NCBI GenBank assembly: GCA_023954155.1
Contig: JAMLIO010000004.1
Coordinates: 436-64,435, forward strand
Direction of reading: 5' to 3'
Length of the DNA stretch: 64,000 nt
Source of the DNA: Pseudobdellovibrionaceae bacterium
GTDB taxonomy: Bacteria > Bdellovibrionota > Bdellovibrionia > Bdellovibrionales > UBA1609
The first letter of the stretch is position 1. Each line of letters begins with the position of its first letter. This document shows positions 31,542 to 62,246 of this stretch, in pieces. A model generated the notes under the pieces. The model was not told the DNA's origin. It made no database searches and was given only the letters and a program-made list of their open reading frames with translations. The position numbers and the translations under genes were made by a program.

Positions 31542-32678
31542 CTAAGGCATTTTTAATTCTTTACAAAATTGGATAAAAGGCAAAACCCTGCCGTTAGGAG
31601 CACTTCCGTAGTCTTGTGTTCCCAGGTGAACTTGATAGAAGGCGGGGATGTCGGTGCGCTCCTTAAAATATTGGATATGTGTCGAGAGCTTTTTTTCTCC
31701 AGTTTTACATTCTACGGCAAAAATGGGTTTTTTGTTTTTTAAAACTACAAAATCTATTTCTCGTCCATCTGTGTCTCTTAAATATCGAAGCTCCATATTA
31801 TAACCTTCGGTGTCTTCAATATAATGACAGAATTTTAAAAGCTGGCTGGCCACTAAATTTTCGAATCGAAATCCTCTTTCATCGACTTGGGACCAATCCC
31901 ATAAGTAATATTTTTGAAGTTTTTTAACGGCTCTGATTTTTTTTGCGCCATAAGGAGCTATCGAAAAGCAATAGTAAAGGTGAGACAAGATTTCTAACCA
32001 ACGTTTAATAGTGGGTTGAGAGACTTGTAAGTCCTCTTCGAGACTTTTTAAAGAAAGTGGGGACCCGACTCTAGACGGGAGAAGCTCTGCGAGTAAAAGT
32101 AAAAGAGATGTGTCTTTAACATTTTCTAAATCATTAAGATCTTCGTAAACAACTTTTTGCATTCGGTCTTTTTGCCAAATTCGGTGTTCGTTCTCATTTT
32201 TTGCAAATAAGGGTTCTGGAAATCCTCCAAATTGAAGTAAATTTTCTAAGTCTTTAGGGGAAGGGTTTTTTTTGTATTCTAAAGCAGAAAATGGATGAAG
32301 GCGAAAATATCTATACCTGCCAAGTAAGGAATCTCCTCCCTTTCTGAAATAATCTAATTTTGCTGACCCAGTTACAATAAACCGATGATCTTCTTTGTGT
32401 TTGTCATATAAACCTTTTAATAAGTTTCTCCATTTTCGATACTTATGAATTTCATCAAAAATGAGAATTTTTTCTTGTAAAGGAAGCTGATTTTTCAAAA
32501 TAAGAGACTTATCTAAGGTGTCATCCCAATTTAAGTAGGATTTGTTTTTAACGGTTGAAGGCGAAACAAAAGCTAAGCTTAAAGTGGTTTTACCCACTTG
32601 GCGAGGACCTCCAATAAAAACCATTTTTTTGTTTAATGCGGATTGAATATGGGGGCTGAGGTATCTTTTTGTTTTCAT
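31542..32678 (-). CDS. AAA-family ATPase with DUF4143 C-terminal domain (COG1373-like)
   Basis: Walker A FIGGPRQVGKTTL, Walker B ILIFDEIH, size of about 380 aa. Confidence 0.75.
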   Translation of the reverse strand: MKTKRYLSPHIQSALNKKMVFIGGPRQVGKTTLSLAFVSPSTVKNKSYLNWDDTLDKSLILKNQLPLQEKILIFDEIHKYRKWRNLLKGLYDKHKEDHRFIVTGSAKLDYFRKGGDSLLGRYRYFRLHPFSALEYKKNPSPKDLENLLQFGGFPEPLFAKNENEHRIWQKDRMQKVVYEDLNDLENVKDTSLLLLLAELLPSRVGSPLSLKSLEEDLQVSQPTIKRWLEILSHLYYCFSIAPYGAKKIRAVKKLQKYYLWDWSQVDERGFRFENLVASQLLKFCHYIEDTEGYNMELRYLRDTDGREIDFVVLKNKKPIFAVECKTGEKKLSTHIQYFKERTDIPAFYQVHLGTQDYGSAPNGRVLPFIQFCKELKMP

Positions 32679-32781: not shown

Positions 32782-32848
32782 ATGAGTAGTTTAAAGTCAA
32801 CTTTGAAACACTCATGAGTAGTTTAAAGTTGACTTTAAACTACTCATG
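32782..32848. repeat. Two tandem palindromic units (operator-like)
   Basis: Unit 2 (32813-32848) is CATGAGTAGTTTAAAGT-TG-ACTTTAAACTACTCATG, a perfect 17+2+17 palindrome. Unit 1 (32782-32815) is ATGAGTAGTTTAAAGT-CAA-CTTTGAAACACTCAT, imperfect. The half-site ATGAGTAGTTTAAAGT repeats with a 32-bp period. Confidence 0.85.
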
Positions 32849-33244: not shown

Positions 33245-33553
33245 ATGAAAAGAATGAAAGATGTATTATTAAATGTAGATGATTCAGAGTACACAATTGG
33301 TCAAATGGTGAGAGCTTTTAGAAAAGGGAAAAACTTAACCTTAGAACAAGTGCAAGAGCTAACGGGCATTTCCATCACCAACCTTTCGGCTATTGAAAAC
33401 GATAAAGTTGATCTTGGTGTAAAAAGAGCCAGTATGTTAGCCGTAGCATTTGGTGTTCATCCTAGAGATATCTTATTCCCGAATGACAAATGGGAAAAAT
33501 CTAAAGAAATTCAGAAGATTGAAGCTAGAGCAAGAAAAATGACAGCGGTTTAA
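33245..33553 (+). CDS. XRE-family helix-turn-helix transcriptional regulator
   Basis: IGQMVRAFRKGKNLTLEQVQELTGISITNLSAIENDK is a classic HTH_3 domain. Confidence 0.8.
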   Translation: MKRMKDVLLNVDDSEYTIGQMVRAFRKGKNLTLEQVQELTGISITNLSAIENDKVDLGVKRASMLAVAFGVHPRDILFPNDKWEKSKEIQKIEARARKMTAV

Positions 33554-42138: not shown

Positions 42139-43365
42139 ATGACAAATATCCTTCTGCTCGAAAAGATTCATTCCATCGCAAAAACTCATTACGAAGCCCA
42201 CGGTTTTCAAGTGACCGAACACGGTCCGTCTGAAACAGGGGCCCCTTTGGTGGGGCTTCTTAAGGGACAAGATATTGTGGGTTTACGGTCTAAAACTCAG
42301 CTCACTGGCGAGGTCTTACAAGAGTCACCCCATCTATCCGCAGTAGGAGCTTATTGTATAGGCACAAATCAAATCGACTTACAAACTGCATGCAAGTTGG
42401 GAGTCGCCGTATTTAATGCCCCTTTTAGTAACACTCGAAGTGTAGCCGAGATGGTGCTAGCCGAGATCATCTGTCTAGCGAGGGGTTTGTTTGCAAAATC
42501 CCAAAAGATGCACGCAGGAATCTGGGAAAAGTCAGCTGCAGGATCAAATGAAATCCGTGGAAAAGTTTTAGGCATTGTGGGTTATGGCCATATTGGCTCC
42601 CAGGTTGGAATTTTGGCTGAAAGCTTAGGCATGAGAGTGATCTTTTACGATGCCATTAAAAAATTACCCTTAGGAAACGCTGAAGAGATGATGACTTTGG
42701 GGGACGTACTCAGTCGTTCCGATTTTGTCACACTACATGTGCCACTGGATAAAACTACAGAGTGGATGATCGGCGAAAAACAATTTTCCATGATGAAAAA
42801 GGGTGCTGCATTTATCAACGCCAGCCGAGGACATGTCGTGCGTTTAGAGGCTTTAAAAAATGCTTTATTAACAGGGCATATATCAGGTGCTGCGATCGAC
42901 GTTTTCCCAGAAGAGCCCAAAGAAAACAACAGCACCTTTGCCCATGAGTTACAAAATATAGAAAATGTCATCTTAACTCCACACATCGCGGGAAGCACGA
43001 TTGAGGCCCAAGAGTCTATAGGAGTGGAGGTCACAGAAAGCCTGATCCGCTTTATGAAAACGGGCCATTCTGTGGGGGCTGTGAACTTCCCACAACTGTA
43101 TTTATCTGAACTGCAATCTGGCTACAGAATCCTAAACGTTCACAAAAACGTGGCAGGAGTCCTAGGGGAAGTAAATAAAATCTTCTCTCACCACAATATA
43201 AATATCTTAAGCCAACAGCTAAAAACCAACGAACAGATAGGGTATTTAGCGGTAGACGTAGAGGGCGCGGTAGACCCCAAAGTCGTAGATGCAATAGCCC
43301 ATCTGCCCACCTCCATCAAAACCCGCTTTCTTGCCAGCGAAGAGTTAGGTTCTAAATTTATTTGA
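42139..43365 (+). CDS. serA: D-3-phosphoglycerate dehydrogenase with C-terminal ACT domain
   Basis: GIVGYGHIGSQVG NAD-binding block, the catalytic-region block TPHIAGST, and an ACT domain. The last 13 codons lie inside palindromic element A. Confidence 0.9.
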   Translation: MTNILLLEKIHSIAKTHYEAHGFQVTEHGPSETGAPLVGLLKGQDIVGLRSKTQLTGEVLQESPHLSAVGAYCIGTNQIDLQTACKLGVAVFNAPFSNTRSVAEMVLAEIICLARGLFAKSQKMHAGIWEKSAAGSNEIRGKVLGIVGYGHIGSQVGILAESLGMRVIFYDAIKKLPLGNAEEMMTLGDVLSRSDFVTLHVPLDKTTEWMIGEKQFSMMKKGAAFINASRGHVVRLEALKNALLTGHISGAAIDVFPEEPKENNSTFAHELQNIENVILTPHIAGSTIEAQESIGVEVTESLIRFMKTGHSVGAVNFPQLYLSELQSGYRILNVHKNVAGVLGEVNKIFSHHNINILSQQLKTNEQIGYLAVDVEGAVDPKVVDAIAHLPTSIKTRFLASEELGSKFI

Positions 43366-43672
43366 AGTTTAAGTTTTGTCTTTGAATTTTAAGTTTTCTT
43401 AGAGATACATCTATCGAATGGCAGCTCCGAGCGAGCAATGCGTATCCGACTTGCGGCATAACTTTTGAATTGAAGTTTAATTTAAGGGAAGCTCCAAAGA
43501 AGTTTCTCTTAAATTAAACTTCAATTCAAGTTATGACGAAAGCCGAGACGCTTTGCACCCGAGTCGGCCTGTCTGCCATTCGATAGATGTATCTCTAAGA
43601 AAACTTAAAATTCAAAGACAAAACTTAAACTTCAAATAAATTTAGAACCTAACTCTTCGCTGGCAAGAAAGC
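43325..43672. repeat. Palindromic element A: exact 100-bp inverted arms around a 148-nt quasi-palindromic centre
   Basis: 43325-43424 is the exact reverse complement of 43573-43672, verified base by base. Inner near-perfect stem 43457-43486 / 43508-43535. Confidence 0.95.
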
Positions 43673-43710
43673 TTAGGGGGTGAGAGTTGTGGAGGAGTCT
43701 GGGGGAGCTT

Positions 43711-45084
43711 TTAGAGGTCGAAGACTTTGCCAGGGTTCATGATGTTGTCGGGGTCAAAGACGGTTTTGACTTGTTTCATGAGTTGGATTTCAGCTTCGGA
43801 TCTGCTGAAATTTAGAAAAGATTTTTTCACTAAGCCTACGCCATGTTCGGCTGAGATGCTGCCTTCGAATTCTTGAATCTTTTTGAACATGTAGGGGCTG
43901 GTGTTTTTGCAGGTGTTGATGAACTCGTCGAGTGGCATATCGTCGGGTCTGAGAATGTTGATGTGTAAGTTTCCATCACCTATGTGGCCAAACCATACAA
44001 CTTCGAAATTGGGGTATTTGGCATTTAAGTATTCTTCTGTGGTTTGTAAAAATTTGGGAATTAAACTGGTTTTTACTGAGACATCGTTTTTGTACGGGGA
44101 CTTATATGAAATGCACTCAGAAATGTCTTCTCTGTACTTCCACAGTTCTTTGTATTGACTGTGGTTCTGACTTAAAACGCCGTCAGTGATGAGCCCCTCT
44201 TCGAGAGCCTTTTCAAATAATCCCAGTGCTGTTTCTTCTTGGTTTTCGCTTTCAAAGTCGATGACTAAATAGTAGGGAGTCTTCTCGGCAATAGGGAATT
44301 GTAAAGTGGGGTTGTGGTGCAAAACATGTTTTAAGGCTTTGTCTGTAAACATCTCAAAGGCATTTAGGGTGAGTGAGCGAAAAAGTTTAAGTGTCGGTAA
44401 GATGGCGTCCACGCTATCTAAGGCTAACAAAAAAACCTGAGGGTTACGTTGAGGTTGAGTCAGTTTGAGTGTGGCTTTGGTGATAAAGCCCAGAGTGCCT
44501 TCGCTGCCAATAAAAAGGTTTTTAAAATCGTAACCTGTGGCGTTTTTTTCCAGTCCTTTATTAAGGTGTAAAACCTCTCCAGCACCTGTGACCACTTCCA
44601 AAGAGGTGACCCACTGTCTGAACATGCCGTAACGGATGACGTTAATGCCTCCAGCGTTAGTGGCAATGTTGCCCCCAATTTGGCTTGAGCCTACAGCGGC
44701 AAAATCTACTGGAAAAAAAAGCCCCTGATCTTTAGCAAAGTTTTGTAAGGTTTCTGTTACAACACCTGCTTCACAGGTGACACTTTGGTCGTCAGCATTA
44801 AAATCTAAAATTTGACTCATCTTTTCAAAAGACACAATCAGTTCCCCATTCAGAGCCACAGCTCCTGCGCTTAAACCTGTGCGTCCGCCACTGGGGACAA
44901 GGCCGACTCGGTTTTCACGTGCCCAGAGGACGATCTTCTGTACGTCTTCGGTGGATTTGGGAAAGGCCACGGCAAGGGCATTGGGAGTAAACTGCTTTAA
45001 CCAATCTTGGCCGTAAAAGGAAAGACTGTCTTTATCGAATAAAAGCTGCTCGGGTGGCAGCAAAGATTTTAAACTTTCAACCAT
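43711..45084 (-). CDS. FAD-linked oxidase (GlcD / D-lactate / D-2-hydroxyacid dehydrogenase family)
   Basis: 457 aa. FAD_binding_4 blocks (GGRTGLSAGAV, SQIGGNIATNAGG) and the C-terminal SAEHGVGLVK block. Confidence 0.8.
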   Translation of the reverse strand: MVESLKSLLPPEQLLFDKDSLSFYGQDWLKQFTPNALAVAFPKSTEDVQKIVLWARENRVGLVPSGGRTGLSAGAVALNGELIVSFEKMSQILDFNADDQSVTCEAGVVTETLQNFAKDQGLFFPVDFAAVGSSQIGGNIATNAGGINVIRYGMFRQWVTSLEVVTGAGEVLHLNKGLEKNATGYDFKNLFIGSEGTLGFITKATLKLTQPQRNPQVFLLALDSVDAILPTLKLFRSLTLNAFEMFTDKALKHVLHHNPTLQFPIAEKTPYYLVIDFESENQEETALGLFEKALEEGLITDGVLSQNHSQYKELWKYREDISECISYKSPYKNDVSVKTSLIPKFLQTTEEYLNAKYPNFEVVWFGHIGDGNLHINILRPDDMPLDEFINTCKNTSPYMFKKIQEFEGSISAEHGVGLVKKSFLNFSRSEAEIQLMKQVKTVFDPDNIMNPGKVFDL

Positions 45085-51964: not shown

Positions 51965-53794
51965 TTGGCTAAGATTACATCAAGCAGTACAGCCGAATAT
52001 TTTGCAAAGAACCTACAACAGGTGGGGTTTTCGTCAGCGACTAAAGCTGTTTTAACCACTTTAAAAGAAACAGTGGATAACTCATTAGATGCTTGCGAAG
52101 ATCATAAGATTCTACCTGAATTAAAGATTGAAATCGAAAAGATTGGCACTGGGGGTTCCAAAAGTGCGGATTTAATACGCATTATGGTGGAAGATAATGG
52201 CCCAGGGTTATCGCCAGAAGACCTTCCACGTGTATTTGGCGAGTACTTGGCCTCTTCAAAGTTTGGACGTGGTCGCTGTTCTCGTGGTCAGCAGGGGATT
52301 GGTATTTCTGCGGCCACCACATGGGCGCAGCTCACCAATGCCGCTGGGGCCAAGGTTTTAAGTAAAACAAAGAATATGCGTAAAGCCATAGAAATGCGCA
52401 TTGATGTAGATATCAAATCGAATAAAGGTCTAGTGAAAGATAAAAAGACTGTGGATTGGGACAAAGACCATGGTCTTCGTGTGGAGTTTGTGATTGATGG
52501 TCGCTTGCAGCTTAATGGAGATGGTGGGATTTTAACGTATCTTGAAGGAACCTCACTCGTAAACCCGCATTTAAAATTACATTATAAGATCAACGATGAC
52601 ATTGATGTGAACGTGGATCGCGTAACAGAAGACGTTCCTGTGGCTCCGCCAGCAACCTTACCTCATCCTCATACTATGAAATTGGGTGAGTTTATGACCC
52701 ATGCTCATTTATTTGGAAACGTAAACTTGCAGAAATTTTTAAAAACAGGTTTTTCTCGTGTGACTGATAGTACGTTAAGTGACTTTGTTAAAAATGGAAT
52801 GCCTAAAAAATTCTTAGCTCAGCCTATATCAAAAACTTCGGAGTCAGAATTTAAGGATATTTTTAAGGCTATACAAGAAACAGAGCTGCCTAACCCCACC
52901 ACGCGCTCAGTGCTTACCATTGGGGAAGAGGCTTTAGCCAACAGTATTCAACGTTTAGGTGCCATTGACTTTTTTAGTATTGTCACCCGTAAACCTAAAA
53001 TATGTGACTTTAAGCCTGTAGTGGTGGAAGTAGCCATTGCGAGGTTCTTAGATCGTGGGAAGGAAGACGAAAGTATTCAGCTTTTACGTTTTGCTAACCG
53101 TGTGCCTTTACAATTCGATAAGGCAGGATGTGCGATCACTAAAGCTGTGGAGTCCGTCAACTGGCGTTCTTATGGCCTGAACCAGTCCAAAAATAATTTG
53201 CCTTTGGGTCCTTACATTTTTGCGATCAGTGTAACGTCGCCGTTTATTAAGTTTAAAAACGCATCTAAAGAGACCATTGATTCTAGTGATGAATTAGTGG
53301 AAGAGATTCGTCGCGCGCTGATGCAAACAGGGCAAAAGCTTTCAAGACACATTCGTCGAGAAGCTAAAGCTGCGGATTTAGAGCGAAAACTTCAACATAT
53401 TGAAAAGTTTGGACCTATTTTGGTTCGTGGACTTGTGCAGATTGTGGGTGCGGCTGACAAACGTCGCGACAAAGCCACTGAAGGTTTAGAAAAGATATTG
53501 GGACGTGATACCAACGTAGCAGAAAAAGAATTAGAGGTCGCAGAGAGCCGCTTGCAGGATTTAAAACAAAAAGAAGGTTTTGATTCTAGTGGGTCCGAGG
53601 ATTTAGAGTCTTTCACAGAGAGCGAACAGCTGTCCTTAGATTCATCATTCGATAAAGATTCAAGAAAGATGAGCTCAAAACCCAACAAGAAGAAAAGTAA
53701 GACTTCAGGCAAAAAGGCAGTGAAGAAAGCGTCTTCCACAAAGGCCGCTGCAAAAAAAGCATCTAAGAAAGTGGCAGCAAGACCTAAAAAATAA
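51965..53794 (+). CDS. top6B: DNA topoisomerase VI subunit B (GHKL ATPase + transducer) with Lys/Ala-rich C-terminal tail
   Basis: The N-terminus STAEYFAKNLQQVGFSS...LKETVDNSLDACEDHKILPELKIEI parallels archaeal Top6B. Bergerat-fold N box (ExxxNSLDA), G1 (EDNGPGL) and G2 (GQQGIGISAA) are present. TTG start 8 nt after GGAGG. Confidence 0.8.
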   Translation: MAKITSSSTAEYFAKNLQQVGFSSATKAVLTTLKETVDNSLDACEDHKILPELKIEIEKIGTGGSKSADLIRIMVEDNGPGLSPEDLPRVFGEYLASSKFGRGRCSRGQQGIGISAATTWAQLTNAAGAKVLSKTKNMRKAIEMRIDVDIKSNKGLVKDKKTVDWDKDHGLRVEFVIDGRLQLNGDGGILTYLEGTSLVNPHLKLHYKINDDIDVNVDRVTEDVPVAPPATLPHPHTMKLGEFMTHAHLFGNVNLQKFLKTGFSRVTDSTLSDFVKNGMPKKFLAQPISKTSESEFKDIFKAIQETELPNPTTRSVLTIGEEALANSIQRLGAIDFFSIVTRKPKICDFKPVVVEVAIARFLDRGKEDESIQLLRFANRVPLQFDKAGCAITKAVESVNWRSYGLNQSKNNLPLGPYIFAISVTSPFIKFKNASKETIDSSDELVEEIRRALMQTGQKLSRHIRREAKAADLERKLQHIEKFGPILVRGLVQIVGAADKRRDKATEGLEKILGRDTNVAEKELEVAESRLQDLKQKEGFDSSGSEDLESFTESEQLSLDSSFDKDSRKMSSKPNKKKSKTSGKKAVKKASSTKAAAKKASKKVAARPKK

Positions 53795-53811
53795 TTCGGA
53801 GATAAAAAGAT

Positions 53812-54981
53812 ATGGCAAAGGCAAGAGTAGCAGGATCAGGGAATTCACAGAAAGACATCATTTATAAAGCAAAGGCCATCTGTGAGGGCATGTTAAGTGA
53901 TTTAGAAAAGGCCAAGCGCCCTGTCTTGGAATCTATCAAGTGCAGCTTGGACAATTCAGAATACGACCCAAGGCTTGGGTATTTGACTCCAGCGGGAAAG
54001 ATGGTGCGCTCAGAGTTAAATGTGTCTTCAGTGCAAAAATTAGCACGTACAGTGTTTATGTTAGATATTTTACTTAACAACGTAAATACAGGTGGTGTGA
54101 ACACCAAAAGAGAGCTGTACTATATGGCAAAAGGTTTGGTGAAAAGCGATAAAGAGCTTAAACCCATAGACTTTGATGACCAGAATGAAAGTGACTCCAT
54201 TATTGATTTTATCACGGATATGCTTGAGGTGTATCGCGAAGAGATGAATTGTTTTGCGAATGATCGTGGGGGACAAACTTACTCACAACAGCTTGTGGTC
54301 ACTGAAACTTTAAATGATGGAACTAAAGCTGTTATTGACTTGAGCTCATTAGGTACTACCCCTTTTCAGCCCAAGAACAAACCACAGGCCTTAACATTAA
54401 AGGCTAAAAGTAAAATTGATTTTTGTTTGGTTGTAGAATCAGAAGGTACGGCGAACACTCTGGTAAGTAATGGGTTTACCAAAAGAAATAAGTGTATCCT
54501 GATGGGTGCTCAAGGGGTGCCTAGTAACGGGGTCAGAGGTTGGTGTAAATTGATTCAAGATCAGCTTAAGATTCCTATTTATTTCTTCGGAGATCTGGAT
54601 GCGTACACTCTGCAAAATATTTACAGAACTCTTAAAGCAGGATCGGCTGCGAGTTTGATTCGTAACAAAGACTTTTCCGCTCCAGATGTAAAGTTTTTAG
54701 GAGTTTTGCCTGAAGATATTAAAAAATACGACCTTCACTATTATGATGTGAAGTCTAACGATGCTTCTGAAATGCGAGCTCTTAAAAAAGCCAAAGATGT
54801 TCTTGCTAATGACCCCTTTTTCCAGGATGCAAAAAACAAAAAGGTCGCAAGCATTCTTAACTTTTTGATCAAAAATAGAATACGTTGCGAACAGCAAGCG
54901 ATCTTTAGTGTGGATCCCAAGGACCCCATAATGCCCGAGAAGATCATTCTTAAGAAGATCAAAGAAAAGTCTTGGGTGTAA
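53812..54981 (+). CDS. top6A: DNA topoisomerase VI subunit A (Spo11-like)
   Basis: KRELYYMAKG (catalytic Tyr region of the winged-helix 5Y-CAP). Toprim Glu (VVESEGTANTL) and DxD (FFGDLDAYT). Immediately downstream of top6B. Confidence 0.8.
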   Translation: MAKARVAGSGNSQKDIIYKAKAICEGMLSDLEKAKRPVLESIKCSLDNSEYDPRLGYLTPAGKMVRSELNVSSVQKLARTVFMLDILLNNVNTGGVNTKRELYYMAKGLVKSDKELKPIDFDDQNESDSIIDFITDMLEVYREEMNCFANDRGGQTYSQQLVVTETLNDGTKAVIDLSSLGTTPFQPKNKPQALTLKAKSKIDFCLVVESEGTANTLVSNGFTKRNKCILMGAQGVPSNGVRGWCKLIQDQLKIPIYFFGDLDAYTLQNIYRTLKAGSAASLIRNKDFSAPDVKFLGVLPEDIKKYDLHYYDVKSNDASEMRALKKAKDVLANDPFFQDAKNKKVASILNFLIKNRIRCEQQAIFSVDPKDPIMPEKIILKKIKEKSWV

Positions 54982-57198: not shown

Positions 57199-57357
57199 GT
57201 CCATTCAGGATTTCTAGGTTCAGTTTATAAATATATAGTGTGAAAATGTGAGTTCGGCTTGGCATGCTTTTGCGAACGCAAAATCATGCCAAACGTCACT
57301 GTCTGAGCATTTTTGCACTATATATTTATAAACTGAACCTAGAAATCCTGAATGGAC
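57199..57357. repeat. Palindromic element B: perfect 42-bp arms around a 75-nt conserved core
   Basis: 57199-57240 is the exact reverse complement of 57316-57357. The core (57241-57315) contains hairpin TTGGCATGCTTTTGCG-AA-CGCAAAATCATGCCAA. Confidence 0.95.
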
Positions 57358-62022: not shown

Positions 62023-62246
62023 GTCTTGTCTGTAAAAACCCGCAATGCAGTGTTGCGCCTCCCGTTGGGTCTTTGGGGTTTGTTTTTGATTATATATACT
62101 CAAAATGCTCAGACAGTGACGTTTGGCATTCTTTTGCGTTCGCAAAAGAATGCCAAGCCGAACTCGCATTTCGACCATATATATAATCAAAAACAAACCC
62201 CAAAGACCCAACGGGAGGCTCGCGTGCGGGTTTTTAAAGACAAGAC
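62023..62246. repeat. Palindromic element C: 22-bp outer arms + perfect 42-bp arms around a 79-nt core homologous to element B
   Basis: 62057-62098 is the exact reverse complement of 62178-62219. The outer pair 62023-62044 / 62225-62246 matches 21 of 22. The core hairpin is TTGGCATTCTTTTGCG-TT-CGCAAAAGAATGCCAA. Confidence 0.95.

Follow-up and report, generated by a model that had tools for sequence, protein, structure and literature searches.

A natural 348-bp nested palindrome at the serA 3' end of a Pseudobdellovibrionaceae bacterium, with indications of growth and homogenisation in place

A 64,000-nt stretch of the genome of a Pseudobdellovibrionaceae bacterium (GenBank assembly GCA_023954155.1, contig JAMLIO010000004.1, positions 436 to 64,435 of the forward strand) was analysed; it is called the window below, and coordinates refer to it unless a contig is named. 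The convergent gap between serA, encoding D-3-phosphoglycerate dehydrogenase, and a gene for a flavin adenine dinucleotide (FAD)-linked oxidase was found to hold a nested palindrome of 348 bp in three layers (43325-43672), termed palindrome A. The structure is real, its locus is an indel hotspot, and its two arms evolve in concert. With somewhat more confidence than doubt, palindrome A is regarded here as a long chromosomal palindrome that was grown and kept symmetrical in place, and not as an inserted unit.

Results

Structure of the palindrome and of the serA 3' end

The outer arms (43325-43424 and 43573-43672) were located with a repeat search and a separate axis scan. They are 100 nt long, 100% complementary as assembled, and enclose 148 nt. 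The best inverted-repeat score was 100, compared with at most 11 in shuffles of the region. All 100 of the 100 arm pairs are Watson-Crick pairs, and G-T pairs are absent. Both arm ends are sharp, without a decayed extension of complementarity outward. The 60 nt of serA lying upstream of the left arm showed only chance-level inverted similarity to the sequence past the right arm (equalled in 1428 of 2000 shuffles), and a decayed palindrome extension into the serA coding sequence was searched for and dropped, as none was found. The perfect 100-bp arms with abrupt ends noted in an earlier reading of this DNA (the first-pass annotation) were thus borne out by the repeat search, the axis scan and the shuffles. 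No strand is assigned to any of the palindromic features described here.

The left arm is AT-rich, holds the serA 3' end and contains two direct sub-repeats of 17-20 nt (43361-43377 and 43381-43397). The 17-nt sub-repeat was considered as a general binding motif and rejected; one weak match was present outside palindrome A. The right arm repeats the left arm exactly in inverted orientation and includes an inverted pseudo-copy of the serA 3' end, as had been proposed earlier. The 148 nt between the arms consist of a GC-rich imperfect-hairpin core with an AT-rich hairpin at its apex. The left half (43425-43460; GCTCCGAGCGAGCAATGCGTATCCGACTTGCGGCAT) and right half (43536-43572) of the GC-rich core are related and non-identical, as previously described, and paired imperfectly in folds with regularly spaced mismatches. 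The inner AT-rich hairpin (43457-43535) has a core stem at 43465-43490 / 43504-43529. The repeat search gave this stem as 43465-43493 / 43501-43529 (29 nt, 93%), and a 2-nt bulge extends the pairing to 43457-43535; when the bulge is counted, the folds confirm the inner stem of the first-pass annotation. Between the right arm and the stop codon of the FAD oxidase lies a unique spacer of 38 nt (43673-43710) outside the palindrome, partly alignable with the FAD-oxidase-proximal sequence of a lineage whose SerA is 86% identical. The earlier statement that the palindrome fills the convergent gap therefore holds nearly, with these 38 nt remaining beside the FAD-oxidase stop.

The gene serA (42139-43365, + strand, 408 aa) was identified from its open reading frame (ORF), its homologues and the Pfam domains 2-Hacid_dh, 2-Hacid_dh_C and ACT_AHAS_ss; its product is MCO5113711.1. 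The last of these domains (ACT) ends at residue 393 and is followed by a conserved KTR (residues 394-396). The first nucleotide of the left arm is the second base of codon Arg396, so that FLASEELGSKFI, i.e. the last 12 codons, and the stop lie inside the arm; the tail feature (43324-43365, +) comprises the Arg396 codon followed by these residues and the stop. The first-pass annotation had assigned 13 codons and the stop to the arm, of which the stop and the last 12 codons stand. In 11 relatives, SerA ends 2-7 residues past KT[RK], which together with the ACT boundary at 393 and the frameshifted tail of an independent strain (L023, below) supports the earlier view that the C-terminal residues are element-derived. 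In L023, two additional nt in the serA-side arm turn the end of SerA into KTRFLASEES plus stop. Since this 2-nt indel rewrites the tail, sequence comparison shows the SerA tail to be unconstrained arm sequence and not native protein.

The convergent oxidase gene (43711-45084, - strand) carries the Pfam domains FAD_binding_4 and FAD-oxidase_C. One of its homologues is named D-2-hydroxyglutarate dehydrogenase (D2HGDH) by UniRef, and the product is referred to as D2HGDH-like. Within palindrome A only small ORFs of at most 33 aa are present. Each arm contains one weak sigma-70-like match pointing to the core (43331-43358, +; 43666-43639, -), consisting of TTGCCA, a 16-nt spacer and TAAATT (9/12); two were found and 1.4 expected, which is about chance.

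Independent assemblies and concerted evolution of the arms

An independent MEGAHIT contig assembled at k=141 from a different sample (L023) encodes an identical FAD oxidase. It crosses the whole of palindrome A into serA, with unique flanks on both sides, at 99% identity and with four private differences, namely a single-nucleotide polymorphism (SNP) in the right arm, one additional nt in the GC-rich core, two in the inner stem and two in the serA-side arm. The inner stem is perfect in L023 through its two additional nt, and the arms of L023 differ from each other by one SNP and one 2-nt indel. A third strain (L009, from ERZ27276804), with a 97% identical FAD oxidase, has a stretch homologous to the right arm's outer ~59 nt, after which comes a centre of unrelated sequence. 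At 1920-2050 of this contig the centre is replaced by unrelated sequence with GC-rich hairpins (e.g. TTTTGCCCGTAGGGCAAA), and the contig ends there; comparison of the L009 centre with Rfam gave no match.

An assembly artefact, i.e. a foldback chimera or a de Bruijn-graph hairpin, would be in keeping with the source being a metagenome-assembled genome (MAG), with the round arm length of 100 nt, and with a possible collapse of arm variants at an assembler k below 100. This explanation is effectively refuted: the assembly from the other sample spans the structure with unique flanks and variants of its own, the third strain carries the right arm, and in two other lineages the contigs of k=31 assemblies stop exactly k-1 nt inside matching arms, on the serA side as well as on the oxidase side (see below). 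Because L023 spans the structure with its own variants and L009 carries the right arm, palindrome A is real, and the foldback artefact considered in the first-pass annotation is effectively excluded.

A comparison of the window with L023 gave four events (three of them indels) within the 348 nt of palindrome A and two within 2030 nt of flanking DNA (Fisher P = 0.005), which makes the locus an indel hotspot. This excess and the concerted evolution of the arms agree with the earlier claim that the palindrome is unstable yet maintained.

The right arms of the window and L009 differ by 10 events over ~60 nt, yet the left and right arms of the window differ at 0 of 100. The right arm is older than the split between the two strains, as both carry it at one and the same position, and the arms must have exchanged information since that split, because 10 differences between the strains stand against none within the window. 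For this exchange the Poisson P was about 5e-5 (7e-3 with a conservative rate). In the right arm, one site is T in L023 and L009 and A in the window, where the A matches the window left arm; this A looks like a mismatch correction. Taken together, the strain comparisons show concerted evolution of the arms within the genome. Crossover between the arms was considered as well and discarded for want of evidence, as a check for spacer inversion found the same core orientation in the window, L023 and a contig of a more distant lineage (L012).

The serA/oxidase junction in related lineages

The gap between serA and the FAD oxidase is bracketed by an inverted repeat in four lineages with SerA identities of 73-100% (the window's own and those at 86%, 80% and 73%). 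Arm sequences are unalignable between the lineages and are paired within each. In the 86% lineage, represented by k=31 assemblies, one 30-mer, GATCTGATTTAAAATAAAGTCACTTTCTTA, terminates the contig on the serA side (L001) and those on the FAD-oxidase side (L024, L025). Thirty nt correspond to k-1 of a k=31 graph and mark a perfect inverted repeat, 31 nt or longer, by which the graph is collapsed from both sides. Contig ends of public k=31 assemblies (L001-L004, L010-L014, L024, L025, L107) showed breaks exactly 30 nt into perfect inverted-repeat arms. In the 80% lineage, three k=31 contigs stop 15 nt past the serA stop. In the same samples the sequence after the oxidase stop, G CACCTCACTTATTGAATTGAATTAAAAGTA, equals the serA end, CGC CACCTCACTTATTGAATTGAATTAAAAGTA, the shared sequence being the last four serA codons and the stop, inverted. 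The 73% lineage has intact contigs with a 137-nt gap and 26-nt arms (85%) reaching from the SerA tail codons to the oxidase stop. In a lineage at 75% (L005, 3921-4832) the gap measures 910 nt and contains no palindrome and two small ORFs of 108 and 107 aa, for which no Pfam hit is recorded; an ordinary hairpin lies over the serA stop there. Since arm sequence differs between lineages and position is kept, growth in place fits better than an inserted unit with 100-bp repeats.

For a distant comparison, 80 serA loci of at most 56% identity were used. Where the convergent oxidase is retained, the gap measures -7, -4, 2, 41, 122, 571 or 628 nt, and none of these loci carries an inverted repeat above chance. 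As these distant syntenic relatives lack a significant inverted repeat, the bracket is a trait of this clade at a junction that was very short originally. In L026, L041, L036 and L030 (52-56% identity; gaps of 2, -4, -7 and 41 nt) the stop codons abut or overlap, so that the mRNA 3' ends must overlap. By the same syntenic comparison, the convergent pairing of serA with a D2HGDH-like oxidase is ancient. The other convergent gaps of the window measure about 3-26 nt, except those of palindrome A and of palindrome B described below.

At the serA boundary, the first codons of the arm, R-F-L, resemble the native R-F-V tail of the 86% lineage. This resemblance suggests that the serA end served as the template for the outer right arm, and the absence of G-T pairs among the 100 Watson-Crick arm pairs points to copying at the DNA level rather than to compensation at the RNA level.

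Palindromes B and C

Large palindromes occur at only four loci of the window. Palindrome B (57199-57357) has 50-nt arms (96%), fills a convergent gap and shares a GC-rich core with palindrome C (62023-62246). The latter is delimited by an outermost 22-nt repeat (62023-62044 / 62225-62246) and has perfect 42-nt arms (62057-62098 / 62178-62219). Both resemble palindrome A in design, a GC-rich imperfect core lying between long AT-rich arms that pair perfectly or nearly so. The core that B and C share is a dispersed repeat (94% over 70 nt; ~95 nt with TATATA runs at its borders), and their arms are locus-specific. A search of the core against a viral collection gave 0 matches.

In the 86% relative, one unbroken contig of 21.8 kb covers both junctions, and neither palindrome is present. 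The B junction there is an 80-nt gap with a classical terminator (A-tract, hairpin, T-tract), and the C junction is an 81-nt gap; the hairpins in these gaps are of the ordinary kind. The sequence TGCGGGTTTTTAAAGACAAGAC upstream of def is kept in the relative, and its inverted copy at 62023-62044 has no counterpart there. The comparison thus shows, by sequence conservation, that the right outermost copy at locus C is ancestral and the left one a derived inverted copy of the flank, which demonstrates inverted flank copying across the hairpin core. Palindrome B is real as well, because a contig of a 91% strain breaks exactly 30 nt into its left arm.

The GC-rich core and the possibility of a mobile element

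The GC-rich core of palindrome A has a counterpart in the centre of L012, a contig of the 80% lineage assembled at k=31. The left half matches at 96% over 28 nt and the right half at 95% over 22 nt, with unalignable outer arms. In L012 the core halves are adjacent, without the inner AT-rich hairpin, and have the same orientation and mismatches as in the window; a T in the right half is common to L023 and L012 and is not found in the window. The core is followed by GTAG in L012, and a consistent GTAG/CGTC tag was not seen elsewhere among the cores compared.

These features were weighed against a non-autonomous mobile palindromic element, similar to a MITE (miniature inverted-repeat transposable element) or a REPIN, inserted at the serA 3' end; its arms would be terminal inverted repeats that provide the C-terminus and the stop, and family members would share a hotspot across lineages. 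Such an element would explain why the gap is enlarged relative to the other convergent gaps in the window and in distant relatives, why two lineages with unalignable arms share the core at ~96% identity and the 97% strain has it swapped for other sequence, why B and C have a dispersed core of ~95 nt bounded by TATATA runs in common, and why the 86% relative lacks the B and C insertions. It is nevertheless considered unlikely. No target-site duplication was found beside the arms, the flanks (...AAAACCC before the left arm and TTAGGGGG after the right arm) being without direct repeat. Neither the window (64 kb) nor 534 kb of related DNA contained a second copy of arm or centre, and a blastn search of the 348 nt against plasmid and phage collections gave no match. 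No transposase was present among the proteins scanned or annotated near A, B and C. At B and C the core is conserved and the long arms are variable, the reverse of what is expected for terminal repeats recognised by a transposase; the outermost arm of C was copied from a local ancestral flank and not imported, and the first arm codons at A resemble a native SerA tail. The k=141 assemblies and one k=31 assembly (L012) pass through the core unbroken, so that it is not a high-copy repeat of high identity. Arms of 100 nt would trivially qualify as MITE terminal inverted repeats, and this feature does not discriminate between the hypotheses. The label "Element A" of the first-pass annotation, which implies a discrete and insertable unit, is therefore regarded as unproven, as neither a target-site duplication nor a second copy was found within the DNA searched.

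The most conserved 20-mer of the core was compared with a genome collection lacking the source MAG, and only a chance match to an actinobacterium was obtained; the other core half had 0 matches in metagenomes. Protelomerase or telomere sites, integron attC sites, IS200/IS605 ends and CRISPR were dropped as candidates, as the window contains neither an associated gene nor a defining motif.

Folding and terminator searches

Folding of the whole of palindrome A as RNA gave a predicted energy of -237.7 kcal/mol, compared with -80 +/- 5 kcal/mol for shuffled sequences (z = -31). Comparison with Rfam at gathering and permissive thresholds returned only sub-threshold hits to generic miRNA-precursor hairpins (e.g. 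93.6 bits at a threshold of 230). A consensus terminator scan inside the palindrome found no site on the serA strand and only a weak minus-strand site (43341-43322).

These results bear on the proposal that palindrome A is a selected RNA structure that would coordinate serA and the D2HGDH-like gene as a bidirectional terminator, as a 3' stabiliser or under the control of RNase III, with symmetry maintained mainly by selection for pairing. The extreme stability of the predicted fold, the weak terminator-like hairpin with its T-run on the minus strand, the retention of the bracket in four lineages despite complete sequence turnover, and the metabolic coupling of SerA and D2HGDH, in a convergent synteny that is ancient, would all suit it. 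PMC9504171, citing Zhang et al. 2017, describes for other bacteria that D-2-hydroxyglutarate is made by SerA and removed by D2HGDH; this coupling may be the reason for the ancient synteny. As the principal explanation, a selected RNA structure is nonetheless rather improbable: 100 Watson-Crick pairs without G-U are unexpected under RNA-level compensation, a canonical terminator for the serA strand was not found in the scan, the Rfam matches are sub-threshold and generic, strains tolerate arm indels and replacement of the whole centre, and distant relatives lack the hairpin and have abutting or overlapping stops. It accounts for retention and not for the origin of perfect arms, and it is compatible with growth in place. 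A role of the 100-bp duplex at the RNA level, for instance as an RNase III substrate, is putative.

Other features of the window

Two tandem 32-nt units, each palindromic (33-nt arms, 91%, zero spacer), are located at 32782-32847 in a divergent region between an AAA_14/DUF4143 gene (31542-32678, -) and an Xre-type helix-turn-helix gene (33245-33553, +). This structure looks like a double operator and not like a palindrome of the A/B/C type. At 51965-54981, adjoining genes encode topoisomerase VI B (Topo-VIb_trans and HATPase) and A (TP6A_N and Spo11 Toprim), a type IIB topoisomerase of the archaeal/eukaryotic type in a Bdellovibrio-like bacterium. Just upstream of this pair, the 86% relative has a small HNH gene.

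Discussion

Proposed growth and homogenisation in place

According to the explanation favoured here, a GC-rich imperfect hairpin core in the convergent serA/FAD-oxidase gap would have acted as a seed. Hairpin formation at the time of replication would promote template switching or non-crossover gene conversion between the two sides, and inverted copying from side to side would both lengthen the palindrome outward and erase mismatches between the arms. Selection would set the limits of growth, at the conserved KTR that closes the ACT domain on the serA side and close to the FAD-oxidase stop on the opposite side. The dispensable SerA tail and the stop are now arm sequence, as extension would have stopped only at KTR. 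We infer template switching as the enzymatic route and the GC-rich core as the seed. The transcribed hairpin, in which both convergent mRNAs would end, probably provides a shared 3'-end structure (terminator, stabiliser or insulator). There is precedent for template switching that corrects inverted repeats, creates new ones and expands them (PMC5941160, PMC8794818, PMC13100816), and long palindromes provoke template switching or related inverted duplications (PMC3315005).

Several points weigh against growth in place. The GC-rich core is far better conserved than the arms between the window and the 80% lineage, and it is replaced in the 97% strain L009; a core that is conserved yet swapped would suit mobility or horizontal exchange as well. 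At B and C the core is truly a dispersed repeat (70 nt, 94%), and dispersed copies of the arms or core of A may exist elsewhere in the genome, the search having covered 64 kb and 534 kb. Convincing microhomology was not found at the switch points, i.e. the outer arm junctions. Template-switch expansions documented so far reach arms of ~48 bp (PMC13100816), compared with 100 bp in palindrome A. The figure of 100/100 pairs holds as assembled, and an SNP between the arms could have been collapsed if the assembler k used for the MAG was below 100. Finally, that serA and the FAD oxidase are neighbours in the 86% and 80% lineages was deduced from synteny and not seen on one contig.

Comparison with described systems

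The closest parallel is the correction of quasipalindromes by template switching (Ripley model; PMC5941160, PMC8794818, PMC13100816), in which one arm templates the other, imperfect repeats become perfect, arms grow longer as flank is copied inverted, and symmetry is kept between orthologous repeats as the sequence drifts. The concerted arms at A and the derived inverted flank copy at C conform to this model. Unlike the described cases, with arms of a few bp to ~48 bp, palindrome A has arms of 100 bp, a total of 348 bp and three layers; it also overwrites a protein C-terminus and recurs at one junction across lineages. At A, the switch is deduced from sequence, and junction microhomology was not identified.

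An engineered, interrupted palindrome of 246 bp in lacZ of E. coli induces breaks; when SbcCD and RecA are lacking, it gives rise to inverted duplications of which it is the centre (PMC3315005). It is comparable to palindrome A in size and interrupted design. The lacZ palindrome is an artificial insert subject to SbcCD-dependent breakage and recombinational repair, whereas palindrome A is natural and kept across strains. Long perfect inverted repeats that overlap coding sequence are likewise described for mitochondrial genes of Nematomorpha (PMC6649704), where both arms lie in genes and both are coding; at palindrome A only the last 12, dispensable codons of one gene are involved.

Like bidirectional intrinsic terminators, palindrome A spans a convergent gap and has a stem that starts at or inside a stop codon. 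Unlike them, its stem is about ten times longer, and no U-tract follows on the serA strand.

Bacterial MITEs and in-frame palindromic elements, such as the Rickettsia palindromic elements and the Neisseria Correia elements, can overlap gene ends and contribute codons or terminators. Palindrome A shares with them its hairpin-forming capacity, its non-coding nature, its intergenic position and its size class of 100-350 bp, and the B/C core is dispersed. It differs in that no target-site duplication or second copy was found, the arms of A, B and C are locus-specific and not conserved within a family, and the outermost arm of C stems from the local flank. REP/REPIN elements are mobilised by RAYT transposases and do not have perfect AT-rich arms of 100 bp. 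The GC-rich core of A is similar to them in being an imperfect hairpin of two inverted halves with conserved mismatches between convergent genes, and dissimilar in lacking a consistent GTAG or CGTC tag; a RAYT gene was not seen in the window.

A combination of both processes was also considered, namely that GC-rich hairpin cores are themselves mobile and that their landing in an intergenic junction triggers progressive palindromisation of the surrounding DNA. Such mobility may be read from the dispersed B/C core and from the A core that is shared or swapped between lineages; the combined scenario is regarded as doubtful. If true, mobile cores would couple a hairpin element with inverted flank copying, which is undescribed, and would build super-hairpins of 150-350 bp, take the place of ordinary terminators and alter the 3' ends of adjacent genes.

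Significance

Such palindromes have practical consequences. They break k=31 assemblies predictably, so matching 30-mers at two contig ends can be used to detect palindromes and the starts of their arms in fragmented data, and annotated protein C-termini can be unreliable next to them.

A long perfect palindrome should be unstable in a bacterial chromosome, and the growth of inverted repeats by template switching has been documented mostly at 5-50 bp. Palindrome A is a natural structure of 348 bp that persists across strains, has arms kept identical by exchange, recurs at one junction, and has replaced the C-terminus and stop of an enzyme of an essential pathway. On balance it is best seen, with the same modest confidence as its growth in place, as a large, natural and recurrent case in which an inverted repeat expands, evolves in concert and rewrites the end of a gene. 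As such it would offer a tractable natural system for the growth and tolerance of palindromes, for the remodelling of gene ends by template switching, and for a possible seeding of palindromes by hairpin cores.

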